Source of the DNA: a virus
Length of the DNA: 64,000 nucleotides
Strand: one strand, 5' to 3'
IMG/VR virus record: IMGVR_UViG_3300044993_000080
Span: 1-64,000 of that record
Numbering within the stretch: position 1 is the first letter of the stretch; every line of letters begins with the position of its first letter. Below, piece by piece: positions 43,052 through 56,776 of the stretch. The position numbers and the translations under genes are program-made. The notes beneath the pieces were generated by a model. It searched no databases. It was given only the letters and a program-made list of their open reading frames with translations, and was not told where the DNA came from.

Positions 43052-43243
43052 TCACGCTACGGTCCTTTCCGTCATCAGCACCATCATGGACGCGCGCTGC
43101 GCGATCTGGCCCACCGGCAGTCCGTTGGCGTGAGCGATAAACAGCGCGCCCGCCGCAATCTCGGTGAGCACATCCTGAAGCTCATCGAGTGTCTGGATAT
43201 CCCGGACCCGCGACATCATCGTCTCTATCAAAGGCCTGTCCAT
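43052..43243 (-). CDS. Small hypothetical protein
   Basis: Translationally coupled ORF MDRPLIE... Confidence 0.55.
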   Translation of the reverse strand: MDRPLIETMMSRVRDIQTLDELQDVLTEIAAGALFIAHANGLPVGQIAQRASMMVLMTERTVA

Positions 43244-43620
43244 CAATGGACACCCATCATGACGCGGCGGCACTTGTCGGCCATCAATTCCGGGTGGTCG
43301 AGCATGTCGAGCGTGGTGAAGTTGTTTTGTCCTCCCCTGTAGTCCTTGCGGCCATTGCAGGTGCGATAGAGGATGTCATTGCCCCGGCCCATGCACGACT
43401 GCGAGACCTGCACGTAGATGCGCTCGCCGTGCAGCGTGGTCTCTCCGGACACTGCCGGACCGGCCATGTTGGTGCGGATGTCGTAGCTGCCAGCGGGCAA
43501 TCCTAGGTGCTGGGCTACCTGCTTGAGCCGCGACTTGGCGGTGCGGTGGAATTTGCGTTTGTGGGCGTCTTCGTCAGCGGTGTAGCCCTGCACGGGCTTG
43601 TTCCAATCAAATGTCGGCAT
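43243..43620 (-). CDS. Conserved hypothetical protein
   Basis: K..FH......L..LA..LGL..G.YDIR.N..GPAVSGE.TLH motif. Own promoter and leader. Confidence 0.75.
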   Translation of the reverse strand: MPTFDWNKPVQGYTADEDAHKRKFHRTAKSRLKQVAQHLGLPAGSYDIRTNMAGPAVSGETTLHGERIYVQVSQSCMGRGNDILYRTCNGRKDYRGGQNNFTTLDMLDHPELMADKCRRVMMGVH

Positions 43621-43682
43621 AGTCGCCACTCCTTCTCGATAGATCAGGTGTAGCGTAGCCGGGATTTTATGTCAAGCGGAAA

Positions 43683-44024
43683 GTGGGGCGCTTCTGTTTC
43701 CCGGTGCGCCCCGAACCGATGTCAAGCGCAGTTAAGCGGCGAGACGAAGTGCAGTTTCCTGCGGGTTGTCGTTGGCATTTCTGCTAACTGTCCCGTCACG
43801 GTGGGCCAATCCGGGTCGCGTCTCTGTGTCCAGTCTGGCTGTCGATCCTGTTTCACCCCCGTCAAGAGCACCGCACCTACCCTCGCTTTCGCGTTTTTGC
43901 GCCCGAAGTAATCGCCCATGCACAGACTTTCCCTACCCGACGAGGTAGCAGCGACGCTCATGGTGGAGGTGGCGGGCACTGCCCCCGCGTCCAGCCGTTC
44001 CTTCGCAGGCCGTATATCGACCAT
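43683..44024 (-). ncRNA. ssrA: Circularly permuted (two-piece) tmRNA
   Basis: Acceptor piece ends GCGGG-GGCAGTG-CCCGC-CACCTCC-A-CCA (43961). A 100-nt intervening segment follows. The coding piece starts GGGGGTGAAACAGGATCGAC (43860), giving an acceptor stem with G3.U. Tag frame 43776-43732 reads ANDNPQETALRLAA*. Promoter TTGACT-17-TATTGT upstream. Confidence 0.95.
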
Positions 44025-44200
44025 AGACGCACAATAACCTACACCGGATTTGTAGTCAAACCCTGTTTGGCAAGTCCGTGCGCCCCCGCATACGGCGTTC
44101 GTTCCGAACCGGGTCTCGCTGATAGCCCTCGTGTGCAACGGGTTGCAGCGTGCTCGGTGTTCGGGTAAGCGTCCGGGTGTAATTCAATGGGAGCCCGGAC

Positions 44201-51403: not shown

Positions 51404-51943
51404 CTATGCCGTCTTCGGGCGTTTGCCGCTCCGGTCAGCCGGAACCCATGCCCGACTGTAGGCGTGATCCGGGATTTCGAGCTTCGTGAATACGCTTTCT
51501 TGCAGGAGCAAGTCGATCTCGCTGCGGTCCGCGCCAAGCTCTTCGCACAACTGCGGGATCGGCACTGCGTGGTCTCGCACTAGGCTCGTGACAAGTTCGT
51601 GCATCCGGGCGGCGACGTGCGATCCCTTAGCGCGATTGATGCGCACGGTCAGCATCTTGCGCTCGGCGTCGGTGATGTCGAGCACGGCGCACGGAACGGC
51701 AGTGCCGAACTTGGCGCGCAAGTCCTCGTCCACCTTGGCGAGTGTCGAACGGTGGAACCCGTCAATGATAAGGTAACGCCCGTTTGCAGTCTCGGCCACT
51801 AGGACCGGCTGTATCCAGCCTTGTTTGAGAAGCGATAGCTTCAGCAGCCGCATTTCCGGGCCAATGACCACATTGGGGTTGTAGTCGTTGGCGTCAAGAA
51901 GATCAACGTCGATCCACTGGATGTTGTCGATAGGGTGGTTCAC
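51404..51943 (-). CDS. ParB-N domain protein, IbrB-like
   Basis: P.DN.QW....L.ANDYNPN.V..PE..LL..S....GW.QP, IIDGFHR and TVR.NRAKG.H motifs. Confidence 0.9.
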   Translation of the reverse strand: MNHPIDNIQWIDVDLLDANDYNPNVVIGPEMRLLKLSLLKQGWIQPVLVAETANGRYLIIDGFHRSTLAKVDEDLRAKFGTAVPCAVLDITDAERKMLTVRINRAKGSHVAARMHELVTSLVRDHAVPIPQLCEELGADRSEIDLLLQESVFTKLEIPDHAYSRAWVPADRSGKRPKTA

Positions 51944-52033
51944 TGTCTATCCCTCTGTTCTGCTCCGGTGCAACGGGTTGCAAGCCGGGATGCTGCCGAG
52001 ACTGATCTTCTTAGCCCGTGCCGGGCGTCCGCG

Positions 52034-53254
52034 TCAATTACAGCCCGCGCGTGCAGCGGCCTCAGCCTCAGCTTGCCGCTCGTAGTCGATCATACTCTGG
52101 TCCGGGTTCGAGTGCACTTGGATACCTTTTTGCCAGTCTCCGCTCACCACCTTCTGGAACACGTGCAGGATCGGGTAGCCGAAGCACGCGCCTTTATCGC
52201 TGTATTTTCCCCTGCGCTTGTTGTTATTTTTGCTGATCCACGCCGTCTTGACGGCCTTGATCGCGCGCTCCCGATTTACCGGGTCGTCGATCTCGTCTTC
52301 GATGTAGCGGATAATCCCCTCGAAACTCTTGGGATACCGACTGATGACAGCGAAGCGATCCACGTCCTTCCAGTAGCGCTCGTGGGTAGCGACCTCAGGG
52401 AATACGTCTATGATCTGCTCGAAAAACTTGGGATACATGACCCGCAAGCGCTTCAAGTAGTTGTATGCTTTGTCGTGGAGCGGGGTCGAAACGCGCAGTG
52501 GAGCGCCAGCGAATAACTCCTGCTCGTAAATTCGACAATAACTGATCCCCCGGTCATAGAAGTAGCGGAATACGTCCCGCTCACTCCAGTCGTAAATCAC
52601 CTTGATGAAGTCACTGTCCTTAGCGCCGCCGCTGTCCCCCGCGATGTAATTGTAAGTGTTCTTGATTACGTTCGAGGCCCGGAACCGCATCAGGCTCTCT
52701 TGGGCTCGGATGCCGTTGAATACCCCGATCTTCCCTTTCCACCCCAGCTTCAGGTTGGTAAGCGCCTGCATCTCGTGCTGGTCGAGCGGCAAGTTCTCTG
52801 GGTGAAGCTGGCGGATCGCACAAGAAGGCGGTTCCCGCAGATGCTTGCGGTTTACGTCCCACTGCACGTAGGGCAGGTGCTTACCCATGATGAAATAGTG
52901 CGACTTCATCGGCACGGCGAAGTAATGAAGCCGCCATTTTTCGGGTTCGTCATTGAGCTTCAGCACGAAGTCGATGACCTCTTGCGGGATAAGCTCTTCG
53001 TCGCGGAACACCACGTCAAGCGGCTGGGTCCACCCCATTTCGTCCATCACCTCGCGCACAAGGTGGAGCACGACTAGGCTGTCCTTACCACCCGAATAGG
53101 AGACAGCGCAGCGGTCGTAGATCGTCAGGCAATGCCTGATGCGCTTCTTCGCTTCGGTCAGCACATCGCTGTCGATATAATGGACGCGGTTCTCGGCGAA
53201 AACATGCGGGCGATCTGCGGGGGCGATAGCCCTCTCTGCCTCGTAGGACAGCAT
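52034..53254 (-). CDS. PAPS-reductase-like PP-loop protein, IbrA-like
   Basis: SYSGGKDS PP-loop, F.DEE, GIRAQES..R and IYDW...DV motifs. Confidence 0.9.
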   Translation of the reverse strand: MLSYEAERAIAPADRPHVFAENRVHYIDSDVLTEAKKRIRHCLTIYDRCAVSYSGGKDSLVVLHLVREVMDEMGWTQPLDVVFRDEELIPQEVIDFVLKLNDEPEKWRLHYFAVPMKSHYFIMGKHLPYVQWDVNRKHLREPPSCAIRQLHPENLPLDQHEMQALTNLKLGWKGKIGVFNGIRAQESLMRFRASNVIKNTYNYIAGDSGGAKDSDFIKVIYDWSERDVFRYFYDRGISYCRIYEQELFAGAPLRVSTPLHDKAYNYLKRLRVMYPKFFEQIIDVFPEVATHERYWKDVDRFAVISRYPKSFEGIIRYIEDEIDDPVNRERAIKAVKTAWISKNNNKRRGKYSDKGACFGYPILHVFQKVVSGDWQKGIQVHSNPDQSMIDYERQAEAEAAARAGCN

Positions 53255-53255
53255 G

Positions 53256-54008
53256 TCAGGCTGCCTCGACTTCGAGGTTGGCCGGGAAGCCCATGTCCGT
53301 CAGCAGCAATTGCAGGCGCTCGCCGTTCGTGCCCGCCAACGGGTAGCGGGTGCGCAGCACTGACAGCATGTGCGTGAAGCGATTGTAGGACAGGTCCGAA
53401 GCGAAGCGCAGCGACGTGCGGTGCACGGGCGGGATGTAACCGGCCCAAGCCTTGCGGTTCGCCCCGATCCCGTTGTCTTCGATCTTGGCGTCCGCACTGC
53501 CGGGTCCGGCGTCGCGCTCTTGGTATTCGCCGCCGTCCGGCGCGCTCCAGTTGTCCCCTGCAAAGGGCTCGCCCACGTCTCGCATACCGGGCATGAACAA
53601 CACGTCCTCTTCGCTGAAGCCCAGCGATATGTAGTCGCCTGACCCGACATCGAGGCGCTTGAACTCCTCCGCCACTGCGGCCATGTCCATCGGCGTGATC
53701 TGTTGGATTTGGTTGTGGGCGATGGCATAGCCCTTGCGCTCGGCCTCATCAAGCGTGAGCACGATGCAGGGCACGTCCGTCATCCCAAGCTCGGTAGCCG
53801 CGTCGAAACGCCCATGGCCTTCCACGATCATGTAGTGGCCTCGGCGCGACGGGTGGCGCACCACGCCGATAGGGTCGAGAAACCCAAAGCGCCGGATACT
53901 GGCCATGATCTGGTTGATATTGATCTCGTTGTGGGTGTTGACATTTTCGGGGTCAGGGACCAGCCGGTTAAGGGCGATCTGCTGGATGCGATCTTCAGAC
54001 AGTGACAT
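53256..54008 (-). CDS. ParB-N domain protein
   Basis: P.PEN.N.H....I..I..SI.RFGF.DPI, IVEGHGR..AA and IAHN motifs. Confidence 0.88.
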   Translation of the reverse strand: MSLSEDRIQQIALNRLVPDPENVNTHNEININQIMASIRRFGFLDPIGVVRHPSRRGHYMIVEGHGRFDAATELGMTDVPCIVLTLDEAERKGYAIAHNQIQQITPMDMAAVAEEFKRLDVGSGDYISLGFSEEDVLFMPGMRDVGEPFAGDNWSAPDGGEYQERDAGPGSADAKIEDNGIGANRKAWAGYIPPVHRTSLRFASDLSYNRFTHMLSVLRTRYPLAGTNGERLQLLLTDMGFPANLEVEAA

Positions 54009-54711
54009 GGGCCTGCTCCTTTTCAATATCGGGATCATCGGTATGGCCTGCCAGATAGTCAAGCGGGATGTCGCCGGGGAAAGCCGCTGCGAGCTCCGCA
54101 TAGAGCACCGGATCGACCTTGGCGATTGCGGCCATCAGGACTTCGCCGCCCATGGACTTTGCTGCGCCCTTGCGCACCTCTTCGGCCATGAAGGCACTGA
54201 ACCGGGCCTTGTCTTCCTTGCTGTCCCACACCACGTCATAAGTCAGTGGTGCGCCATCAGCGGCGGTCGAGCCCTGCTCGGCTCGCTCCTCTGGGTCCCC
54301 AAAGTGAACGAATAGGTTGTCTACGATCTTGTCGCTGAAGCCCATATCCCCGAACGCAATGTCGTGGCCCTCTCCCACCAGCGATTGCAGAGTAGTGAAT
54401 AGAGCACCAAAGTCAAAAGTCGATGTCAGCGCGATCTTGTTGTGCGCGATGCGGTAAAGGTCGAGATCGTCCGCACTGGCGTCGCTTATGACCAGCACGG
54501 GCACGTCCACCAGTTGAAGCCTTTGCGCGGCAAGCCACCTGCCGTGACCTTCGACAATGACCCCTTCGGGCGTGATTGCGATGGGGTCGTTGAAGCCAAA
54601 TCGCGTGATTGACGCGGCGATTGCGGCCACGTCTTCATCATTGTGTTGCTTCGAGTTGGTCTCATAGGGCACGAGTTGATGAACCTCGCGCCGCTCCATT
54701 ATCAGCTTCAT
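53995..54711 (-). CDS. ParB-N domain protein (paralogue)
   Basis: L.PY..N.K.H, SI.RFGFNDPI, IVEGHGR.LAA and YRIAHNK motifs. CAGGAGG RBS. Confidence 0.88.
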   Translation of the reverse strand: MKLIMERREVHQLVPYETNSKQHNDEDVAAIAASITRFGFNDPIAITPEGVIVEGHGRWLAAQRLQLVDVPVLVISDASADDLDLYRIAHNKIALTSTFDFGALFTTLQSLVGEGHDIAFGDMGFSDKIVDNLFVHFGDPEERAEQGSTAADGAPLTYDVVWDSKEDKARFSAFMAEEVRKGAAKSMGGEVLMAAIAKVDPVLYAELAAAFPGDIPLDYLAGHTDDPDIEKEQAHVTV

Positions 54712-56041: not shown

Positions 56042-56776
56042 TTAGTCGGCGGGCACCATCAGCACGGCGTCCTTATGTCGGAACACTTCACGCCATGTCG
56101 GGCCGAGTGCGTAGATTTCCCGGTCCGTGTTATAGATCGGATGTGCGACCCGGTTCTTGTAGGGTCCGTATGCCCGGCCCTGCAATACGAGGTAGCGCAC
56201 CCCGGCCTCACGTGCAGCCTCGCCAAACGCATGACCAGCCGGTTTCCAGATAGCTTCGGAGCGCGCCCACGGGTCTGCGTCCTCTGGGTGCTTCTTCGTA
56301 GCCCCTTCCTTCGCGTAGGTCGTGGCAAAGAGTTCTGACAGGACGCGCCGGGCAAGCCACGTAGTGAACCCCTGCTGCACCCATTCCCGCGCTTGGGCCC
56401 GAAACGCCTCACCCCGAACATCCAGCGGCACTGCGGCCATGGTCACGCCGGGGCACCGGGCGCGAAGGTGCATGTTGAACACCTCCACGCTGGGAGCATC
56501 GAGCTCTAGCCCTAGGCACTTGGTCCACCCCATCTGCACTGCCCGGATTGCCAGCATCCCATGGCAGGCCCCGAAGTCGATTGCGCCCGTGCGATCTGCG
56601 ACGGGTATCTGCGCCATGGCCACCGCCATTTGATCGTGAATAGCTGGAAGTGTGCCATCCGCGAGATAGGCGTCGATGTGCTTGAAATCGGCAAATACAC
56701 TGCCATTGTGCTGCGGCTTCAGGGTCTCTTTAAGGCTCATACGATTGGCAATCCTTGGGTTCTGCCCTATCGGCAC
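56042..56776 (-). CDS. Class I SAM-dependent methyltransferase-like protein
   Basis: AIDFGACHG motif I and LGLELD motif II. Own TTGACT-17-TATCGT promoter. Confidence 0.75.
   Translation of the reverse strand: MPIGQNPRIANRMSLKETLKPQHNGSVFADFKHIDAYLADGTLPAIHDQMAVAMAQIPVADRTGAIDFGACHGMLAIRAVQMGWTKCLGLELDAPSVEVFNMHLRARCPGVTMAAVPLDVRGEAFRAQAREWVQQGFTTWLARRVLSELFATTYAKEGATKKHPEDADPWARSEAIWKPAGHAFGEAAREAGVRYLVLQGRAYGPYKNRVAHPIYNTDREIYALGPTWREVFRHKDAVLMVPAD

Follow-up and report, generated by a model that had tools for sequence, protein, structure and literature searches.

A complete circularly permuted, two-piece alpha-type tmRNA gene in a siphovirus assembled from a metagenome

The stretch of DNA analysed here (the window, whose coordinates are used throughout) consists of bases 1-64000 of IMG/VR virus record IMGVR_UViG_3300044993_000080, a phage sequence of 84,416 bases. 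The element under study is a transfer-messenger RNA (tmRNA; ssrA) gene on its minus strand, for which an initial annotation, made from the sequence letters, had proposed the circularly permuted, two-piece form lying under a spurious open reading frame (ORF). In the window, ARAGORN called a single permuted tmRNA, at 43641-44053(-), with the tag ANDNPQETALRLAA*. The Rfam alpha_tmRNA model (RF01849) matched positions 43682-44077(-) over its full length (model positions 1-355) with 117.3 bits (gathering score, 50; E = 2.4e-31), while the tmRNA_permuted model (RF04321) gave 91.5 bits against a gathering score of 47 (model positions 1-213). Both gene-finding checks named in the initial annotation, ARAGORN and the Rfam alpha_tmRNA model, were thus positive, with covariance scores above gathering; the two models and ARAGORN agree, and every element that the annotation had listed is present in the sequence. 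A permissive rescan (up to E = 1) found no other Rfam family, riboswitches included, matching the tmRNA locus, and no further tRNA-like gene was found, the tmRNA being the sole one in the 84,416-bp record. We conclude that the locus is a complete two-piece alpha-type tmRNA gene of a phage.

Table 1. Features of the tmRNA locus and of other regions of the phage record
Feature	Position	Strand	Remarks
Promoter-like site TTGACT-17-TATTGT	44059-44031 (-35: 44059-44054)	-	Consensus scan; upstream of the tmRNA
Acceptor piece (3' half of the tRNA-like domain)	about 44024-43961	-	Parse and Rfam; holds the 5' strands of long-range helix P2
T-arm GCGGG-GGCAGTG-CCCGC	43988-43972	-	5-bp stem, 7-nt GGCRGTR-type loop
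3' acceptor strand CACCTCC	43971-43965	-	Within the acceptor piece
Discriminator A	43964	-	
Encoded CCA	43963-43961	-	
Intervening segment, 100 nt	43960-43861	-	Ends pair (GAGCGTCGC/GCGGTGCTC)
Coding piece	43860-43682	-	5' acceptor strand, GAAACAGGATCGAC, P2 3' strands, mRNA-like region, 3' hairpin
5' acceptor strand GGGGGTG	43860-43854	-	G3 pairs with U
Tag frame	43776-43732	-	GCC AAC GAC AAC CCG CAG GAA ACT GCA CTT CGT CTC GCC GCT TAA = ANDNPQETALRLAA*
3'-terminal hairpin GGGGCGC-ACCGGGAAACAGAA-GCGCCCC, then ACTTTCC	43712-43685	-	RF01849 model positions about 325-355
Next motif copy TTGACATAAAATCC	43675-43662	-	Directly after the tmRNA 3' hairpin; 46 nt upstream of ORF 43243-43629
Mechanical ORF, 138 aa, TTG start	43722-44138	-	ORF list; overlies the tmRNA gene
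ParB-like / PAPS-reductase-like / ParB-like trio	51404-54101	-	phrog_2159, phrog_2302, phrog_620
Methyltransferase-like gene	56042-56776		Near the ParB/PAPS-reductase trio
Family-A DNA polymerase, 993 aa	L002:8065-11046 (genome 71864-74845)	-	

As listed in Table 1, the gene shows the permuted order, in which an acceptor piece ending in CCA is followed by an intervening segment and then by a coding piece opening with the 5' acceptor strand. The acceptor stem (GGGGGTG/CACCTCC) has seven pairs including G3.U and, with the discriminator A and the encoded CCA, makes the alanine identity set complete; the conserved core comprises GGAC ahead of the T-arm and GAAACAGGATCGAC after the 5' acceptor strand. 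The tag frame has 14 codons, with a GCN resume codon, an ANDN start, a hydrophobic end in AA and a stop. The loop of the 3' hairpin, ACC..G.AACAGAA, is common to host and phage alpha-type tmRNAs; this hairpin may double as a terminator, and the consensus scan did not call it as one. An energy-based co-fold of the two pieces recovered the acceptor stem, the T-arm and the 3' hairpin, and did not recover the long-range P2 helix. The intervening segment had been described as self-pairing, and it does fold (minimum free energy, -37.1 kcal/mol), but with just z = -1.5 versus shuffles; it is presumably removed by processing, and no tRNA or Rfam motif was found inside it. As for the 138-aa ORF, no Pfam family was found in it, and its G+C content by codon position is flat (0.55/0.58/0.66, against about 0.6/0.45/0.75 in the real genes of the phage). 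We judge it, from its composition, to be non-coding, as first suspected, and the annotation of the window is corrected to a non-coding RNA gene in place of an ORF.

In order to compare viral with bacterial two-piece tmRNAs, tRNA-like domains were parsed from 20-nt pattern scans returning at least 120 loci from IMG/VR and at least 120 rows from species genomes. Among the matches listed, to which all counts of this comparison refer, 105 unique bacterial and 105 unique viral sequences were parsed, and these revealed that (i) the T-stem CCGGG/CCCGG is carried by 103/105 bacterial versus 12/105 viral sequences, (ii) other T-stem variants number 2 in bacteria versus 24 in viruses, the five viral pairs being always complementary, (iii) G3.U is present in all sequences of both sets (105/105 each), (iv) the tag has 12-13 residues in 86/96 bacterial sequences and mostly 10, 13 or 14 in viral ones, (v) the intervening segment has a median of 28 nt in bacteria versus 74 nt in viruses, and (vi) 62/64 unique viral tags end in AA. 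A pass without the pairing filter gave the same T-stem picture. With its GCGGG/CCCGC stem, 14-residue tag and 100-nt intervening segment, the phage gene is, as far as these signatures tell, of the viral kind. Two-piece tmRNAs were also found in five cultured phages (Erythrobacter phage vB_EliS-L02, Mesorhizobium phage Cp1R7A-A1, Roseobacter phage DSS3P8, Alcaligenes phage QDWS595 and Pelagibacter phage Mosig), all with non-host T-stems and intervening segments of 44-106 nt. Within the stretches fetched, the tmRNA carries no annotation in OL955261.1 (about 75.7 kb, vB_EliS-L02), MT188704.1 (about 58.7 kb, Cp1R7A-A1), KT870145.1 (about 9.1 kb, DSS3P8) and OK149171.2 (about 55.2 kb, QDWS595). With ARAGORN, a tRNA-Val(gac) was seen within 3 of 118 long intervening segments of viral two-piece tmRNAs (IMG/VR loci L168, L187 and L194), and a tRNA-Phe within that of L352, a metagenome contig; it is therefore possible that excision of the spacer also sets free cargo embedded in it.

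Trees were built from the acceptor and coding pieces of subsampled rows, with the intervening segment left out. In a FastTree phylogeny of 189 rows, the viral and bacterial labels changed 4 times, compared with a mean of 63 after shuffling. IQ-TREE was run on 99 rows (45 viral and 40 bacterial rows sampled, plus all rows of interest, after four beta-type gammaproteobacterial rows had been dropped). It placed 40/42 bacterial rows in one clade (support 96/80), the exceptions being a phage contig and a Sphingomonas metagenome-assembled genome (MAG), in a tree with about 245 alignable columns, fast-evolving viral rows, an arbitrary root and rows sampled among the matches listed, where viral rows might be displaced from the bacterial clade by long-branch effects. 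The phage gene falls in a clade of 14 (support 95/96), made up of ten IMG/VR rows (the phage gene included), the phage contig, the Sphingomonas MAG and the Erythrobacter and Mesorhizobium phages, and containing no typical bacterial ssrA; its highest identity in the tree alignment is 76% over 238 columns. A long-branch relative of the same tmRNA clade, L047, comes from an IMG/VR record of 83,254 bases with direct terminal repeats (completeness 100), a phage without the capsid of the present one. Its tag as called by ARAGORN is long and not AA-ended (AQGLTREPGNRTSGTDPVTSKRRFA), and may be degenerate or a mis-called frame. A member of the clade, L205 (G302:C29:17387-18828), is a mosaic flanked by genes for head morphogenesis and scaffold on a phage contig that was binned with a gammaproteobacterial MAG possessing a one-piece tmRNA. 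The mRNA-like region of L205 is near-identical to that of locus L209, but it is joined to another kind of tRNA-like domain (ACGGG/CCCGT stem, TGCAATT loop, GGGGCCG acceptor), which suggests that tmRNA modules recombine.

The nearest sequences to the phage tmRNA are viral, with 76-81% identity, and lie on contigs with unrelated backbones; a metagenome scan with a clade-specific 20-mer gave 4 loci, none closer than 81%. The best bacterial BLAST match, among 301 Sphingomonadaceae genomes, reached 70% over 182 nt, and two pattern scans of 185,579 species genomes found no near-identical host gene. The exact T-arm plus acceptor-strand pattern (30 specified bases) occurs at 5 loci in these species genomes, four of them gammaproteobacterial beta-type tmRNAs and one a Sphingomonas MAG, and at 42 loci in IMG/VR, where ARAGORN called a tmRNA in 38/42. 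The tag-type pattern NDN-xxx-TAL[R/K]LAA* has 10 IMG/VR loci and 2 species-genome loci. One of the latter is a contig of 42.9 kb packed with genes for phage heads and tails; the gammaproteobacterial MAG into which it was binned carries a separate, one-piece tmRNA (205.6 bits). The other is the Sphingomonas MAG (L126/L155, G001:C228:1859-2253; tag ANDNSPVTALKLAA), in which the tmRNA is the sole match and its context looks chromosomal (PAS-GGDEF-EAL, permease, GroEL). Two genus-mates of this MAG have ordinary tmRNAs with the tag ANDNEALAIAA and a CCGGG stem (205.5 and 150.2 bits), and all 18 tmRNA calls from the 301 sampled Sphingomonadaceae genomes have 11-residue tags. A native host gene in this MAG was considered and rejected, as the genus-mates are ordinary and the flanks are not syntenic; its phage-clade tmRNA may have replaced the native gene, may be an additional copy where the MAG is incomplete, or may lie on a contig that was binned wrongly.

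The flanks of the related viral copies hold a terminase, a Mu-F-like head protein, a T4 gp59-like protein, PhoH, or family-less proteins; no integrase was found among their 38 flank ORFs, and no flank protein matched any protein of the present phage. Its capsid was found in 0/5 large tmRNA-bearing viral contigs, and its family-A DNA polymerase (PolA) in 0/4 alpha-host cultured tmRNA phages, with a weak match to Alcaligenes phage QDWS595 (25% identity; E = 5.5e-7). Taken together, these comparisons indicate that the phage tmRNA is no recent capture from a host and belongs to a lineage carried by unrelated phages. They bear directly on the possibility that the gene is a passenger serving no purpose for the phage: a host ssrA that was captured recently or is decaying, the remnant of an att site, or a chimera produced by assembly. 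Such an origin would fit excerpts of PMC9004378, according to which ssrA is a frequent integration site of phages and islands, which can carry pieces of it, and the record is indeed a metagenome assembly, 77% complete. Yet the gene is of full length, no tyrosine or serine recombinase (Phage_integrase, Resolvase) was found up to E = 1 in the 84-kb record, there is no near-identity to host ssrA, the G+C content of the tmRNA (61.4%) matches that of the phage (59.4%), a phage promoter motif frames the gene, and within the clade selection acts on both structure and tag. We regard a passenger as largely refuted and give it hardly any probability; the remnant next to an integrase, which the initial annotation had named as the finding that would overturn its proposal, is not what lies here. 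A functional phage gene is the reading that we favour.

Selection was followed in 11 aligned members of the phage-associated tmRNA clade. All five pairs of P2a are kept in 11/11 members, with compensatory changes (G-C/G-T/A-T, G-C/A-T and T-A/C-G), and the five pairs of the T-stem are likewise kept in 11/11, with compensatory changes present. The acceptor stem is paired across all members save one row shifted by one base by MAFFT, G3.U is found in 11/11, and in the 3' hairpin the stem covaries while the loop is conserved. In the P2b/P2c region the alignment has a conserved G-A at one position. The tag frames of the clade read xNDN-xxx-TALRLAA, and in the 10 members with 14-codon tags each of codons 8-14 (TALRLAA) has 2-3 synonymous variants, the sole amino-acid change being R to K. 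This pattern points to a translated peptide under purifying selection. Since the helices covary and the tag changes are nearly all synonymous, the RNA would be folded and the tag translated.

Conservation of the tag weighs on a different possibility, in which the phage RNA is a competitor or decoy that titrates host SmpB, EF-Tu or alanyl-tRNA synthetase and so damps or redirects host trans-translation, for example by keeping phage proteins from being tagged on the host's terms, with no added rescue capacity. The phage has no smpB, so a host pool must be drawn on, and viral T-stems differ systematically from those of hosts at the two outer pairs (among the matches listed). The outer T-stem pairs of tRNA are positions that tune EF-Tu affinity. 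Moreover, the form of mycobacteriophage DS6A consisting only of a tRNA-like domain (TLD) is reported to resemble a strong tmRNA inhibitor (excerpts of PMC4131195 and PMC11915505), and a counteracting role is suggested by the authors on phage Lacusarx in an excerpt of PMC5648845. A pure decoy, however, would have no need of the intact tag frame seen here, nor of purifying selection on the peptide including its LAA end. Nearly all unique viral tags listed also keep an AA ending. We consider a decoy unlikely because the tag is conserved, and retain ribosome rescue as the favoured role.

The initial annotation had also given the gene a promoter of its own. A sigma-70-like consensus scan found 2 sites versus 0.4 expected, among them TTGACT-17-TATTGT upstream of the tmRNA, and the -35 region of the tmRNA is a diverged copy of a repeated phage motif, TTGAC-N3-AAATC[CT]. 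With one mismatch allowed, this motif occurs 16 times in the window versus 0.64 expected (0/100 shuffles reach 16), with 15/16 copies on the minus strand. A stricter pattern likewise has 16 copies genome-wide, all on the coding strand. Of these, 12 stand 19-65 nt ahead of an ORF start, with a GGAG-type ribosome site after them; one precedes the tmRNA, two are about 205 nt from the next called ORF, and one falls within an ORF. The attribution of an own promoter is thus borne out by the site itself and by its membership in a 16-copy phage motif. The next copy, directly after the 3' hairpin, appears to mark the end of the tmRNA transcription unit and to drive ORF 43243-43629. With motif copies directly before and after it, the tmRNA would therefore be a cassette of its own, regulated in the manner typical of this phage. 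The 16 promoter-like cassettes (window 25950-60770 and genome 81804, minus strand) read CGCTTGACATAAAATCY..GCCTAnGCCAT, then TCGAGAGGAG, with ATG about 45 nt on; many stand behind a T-rich run, and the family clusters between the replication module and the structural one. The family looks like an early/middle promoter set for host RNA polymerase.

The 84,416-bp record has direct terminal repeats (a 127-bp exact repeat) and a CheckV completeness of 77, and nearly all its genes lie on the minus strand. PHROGs matches include a lambda-J-like central tail fibre, tape measure, minor tail proteins, portal, head protease and capsid protein, as well as HNH endonucleases, a ParB / PAPS-reductase / ParB cluster, a ligase and an exonuclease, and Pfam matches a PolA, a DnaB-type helicase, RecA, an AAA ATPase and a lysozyme. 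The phage is a siphovirus with a lambda-like tail. The ParB/PAPS-reductase trio and the nearby methyltransferase-like gene probably form a DNA-modification module. The N-terminus of the polymerase has a uracil-DNA-glycosylase-superfamily match (PF03167, 26.2 bits) ahead of its 3'-5' exonuclease and polymerase domains. No smpB had been noticed in the window, and this holds for the whole 84-kb record, in which no SmpB was found up to E = 1; the phage would therefore require a host SmpB partner.

In IMG/VR the capsid protein has one relative on a 7.8-kb fragment (82%). Its best cultured relatives are Rhizobium phages RHph_I4, L338C and P11VFA (65-66% identity), followed by Agrobacterium, Aeromonas, Stenotrophomonas and Rhodobacter phages (43-48%). 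A permuted tmRNA was found in 0/5 capsid-related phages (Rhizobium RHph_I4 and L338C, Agrobacterium JP1, Stenotrophomonas DLP_5 and Rhodobacter RcZahn), and no IMG/VR loci related through the two neighbouring or nearby proteins were found. The public runs with the full locus carry the labels hot-spring metagenome and microbial-mat metagenome, and could be the source data. Our best guess, because of the Rhizobium-phage-like capsid and of the Erythrobacter and Mesorhizobium phages as clade-mates of the tmRNA, is an alphaproteobacterial host. The tmRNA had been thought to point to the host class; the class stands as this best guess, through the capsid, but the tmRNA type alone is a weak guide, as its phage-associated clade includes the contig binned with a gammaproteobacterial MAG. 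Excerpts of PMC9004378 likewise describe a phage that carries an alpha-type tmRNA although its host is not an alphaproteobacterium.

Around the tmRNA lie early or middle ORFans; the seven surrounding ORFs gave no match to a PHROG or Pfam family. Such a location would suit a use in counter-defence, proposed in the initial annotation, whereby the tmRNA rescues ribosomes stalled by abortive-infection RNases or toxins, or replaces host tmRNA destroyed by a nuclease, its divergence evading cleavage; this would be a special case of rescue by a functional tmRNA, with no separate mechanism. The divergence in sequence of phage tmRNAs with structure kept, with 25 T-stem variants among 105 unique viral genes against one identical stem in 103/105 hosts (among the matches listed), is in line with this idea, but fits faster evolution under weaker constraint equally well. 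No defence or anti-defence gene was identified beside the tmRNA, and in the literature covered, available in excerpts, no tmRNA-cleaving defence was found documented. We hold this specialised use to be rather improbable, and keep ribosome rescue in general as the preferred explanation.

The two-piece tmRNA of Caulobacter was reportedly described by Keiler, Shapiro and Williams in 2000. With the alphaproteobacterial form (RF01849) the phage gene shares the permuted order, GGAC, the 7-nt GGCNGTN T-loop, G3.U, ACCA, the ANDN...AA tag, the 3' hairpin with its AACAGAA loop and a full-length model match. It differs from host tmRNAs in its score (117 bits versus 150-205), in its T-stem (GCGGG/CCCGC versus CCGGG/CCCGG), and in having 14 tag residues and a 100-nt spacer, with no smpB, where hosts have 12-13 residues in 86/96 and a median spacer of 28 nt (among the matches listed). 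Its nearest cultured tmRNA relatives, vB_EliS-L02 (OL955261.1) and Cp1R7A-A1 (MT188704.1), lie in the same clade of 14 and share the GCGGG/CCCGC T-stem and long intervening segments (88 and 93 nt). They differ in the acceptor stem (GGGGGCG/CGCCTCC), the tags (VNDNDVVVARDEVRLAA and VAANDNHFEARALAA) and genomes of 131-150 kb without this PolA or a listed capsid match; in vB_EliS-L02, tRNA genes adjoin the tmRNA.

The initial annotation had held that a full two-piece gene with its own promoter in an early block of a phage looked unusual, which was an overstatement. According to excerpts of PMC9004378, tmRNA was found in 402/18,146 phage genomes and 53 of 133 unique forms were two-piece, to which the five cultured phages and at least 120 IMG/VR loci noted above are to be added. 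Excerpts of other papers give 79 unique bacteriophage tmRNAs (PMC11915505), mycobacteriophage tmRNA genes including the TLD-only form of DS6A (PMC4131195), and single tmRNAs in Sphingobium phage Lacusarx (PMC5648845) and Caulobacter phage Shash (PMC13459779). As far as excerpts of PMC9004378 go, the marine myophages (OM43 phage Melnitz and Pelagibacter phages) resemble the present phage in their complete permuted alpha-type ssrA, lytic life without an integrase, early-type promoter (the Melnitz gene lies behind an early promoter) and lack of a match to the host's own gene. They differ in being T4-like myoviruses with tRNAs, whereas here we have a lambda-like-tailed siphovirus without tRNAs; Melnitz also has a glutamine riboswitch in the 3' domain of its tmRNA, and none was found in the phage locus here. 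The tmRNA of Pelagibacter phage Mosig falls elsewhere in the tree. Mycobacteriophage (Bxz1 group) tmRNAs, per excerpts of PMC4131195, share a phage-borne ssrA dependent on host SmpB but have the standard unpermuted, one-piece gene form, and the DS6A form, thought inhibitory, has no tag frame, in contrast to the conserved 14-codon frame here. A two-piece tmRNA in a phage was thus already known, while the wider viral-lineage and T-stem pattern may be new: in excerpts of the open-access literature on phage and viral tmRNA we found no description of phage-specific tmRNA clades or of the T-stem contrast.

Overall, we think it probable that this is a functional phage-encoded two-piece tmRNA gene whose likely benefit is extra or host-independent ribosome rescue during infection. 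Gene identity, anatomy, covariation, tag selection, promoter motif, phage context and the lack of smpB and integrase are established here; from these we infer transcription, processing, charging, use of host SmpB and benefit to the phage, in steps taken mostly from established tmRNA biology. Part of these steps is summarised in excerpts of PMC9004378 and PMC11915505. Host RNA polymerase would transcribe the gene from its sigma-70-like phage promoter into one precursor of about 340 nt. Host tRNA-processing enzymes would excise the 100-nt intervening segment, RNase P presumably cutting at G1 of the coding piece, to give a CCA-ended acceptor piece and a coding piece joined by the acceptor stem and helix P2. 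Host alanyl-tRNA synthetase would charge this product through G3.U and the A discriminator, and the charged tmRNA, with host SmpB and EF-Tu, would enter stalled ribosomes. Translation would resume on the tag frame, (A)ANDNPQETALRLAA being added, and the LAA end would route the peptide to host proteases. The need for rescue may arise from broken messages generated by phage transcription and mRNA turnover.

Several points weigh against this interpretation. (i) The RF01849 score is well under those of the two Sphingomonadaceae host genes given above. (ii) Rfam marks mismatches in P2b, and P2b and P2c are unconfirmed because MAFFT left both helices out of register; the models and tools applied score no pseudoknots. 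(iii) The promoter copy of the tmRNA is the most diverged of its family, and its -10 element is uncertain. (iv) No close phage relative emerged from 50,697 phage records when 20 kb were searched with megablast and the locus with blastn (E <= 1e-5). (v) Of the five listed public sequencing runs, none is on record as RNA.

On a wider scale, we put forward tentatively, and with somewhat more doubt than confidence, that phage alpha-type two-piece tmRNAs, rather than being scattered recent captures from hosts, belong to a small number of old lineages maintained by viruses, which pass between unrelated backbones and host orders, with modules reshuffled. If this is true, the outer T-stem pairs vary freely in viral lineages while always remaining paired, and are fixed as CCGGG/CCCGG in bacterial Alphaproteobacteria, the viral tags and intervening segments being longer as well; phage tmRNAs would then have escaped a sequence-specific host constraint, or be selected to differ. 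Candidates for such a constraint would be EF-Tu affinity, a host factor or nuclease, or island integrases using the stretch as attB. The invariant host T-stem, set against the freely covarying viral one, would thus point to an unexplained constraint on host tmRNA, and with phage tmRNAs as a lineage of their own, tmRNA type would be an unreliable host marker. The cultured phages with unannotated tmRNAs are possible experimental systems for the value of trans-translation to a phage. Were the wider reading true, the gene in the window would be an ordinary representative of a separate viral branch of trans-translation. As a medium-sized lytic siphovirus carries the tmRNA as its only translation-related gene, ribosome rescue alone can be worth carrying.

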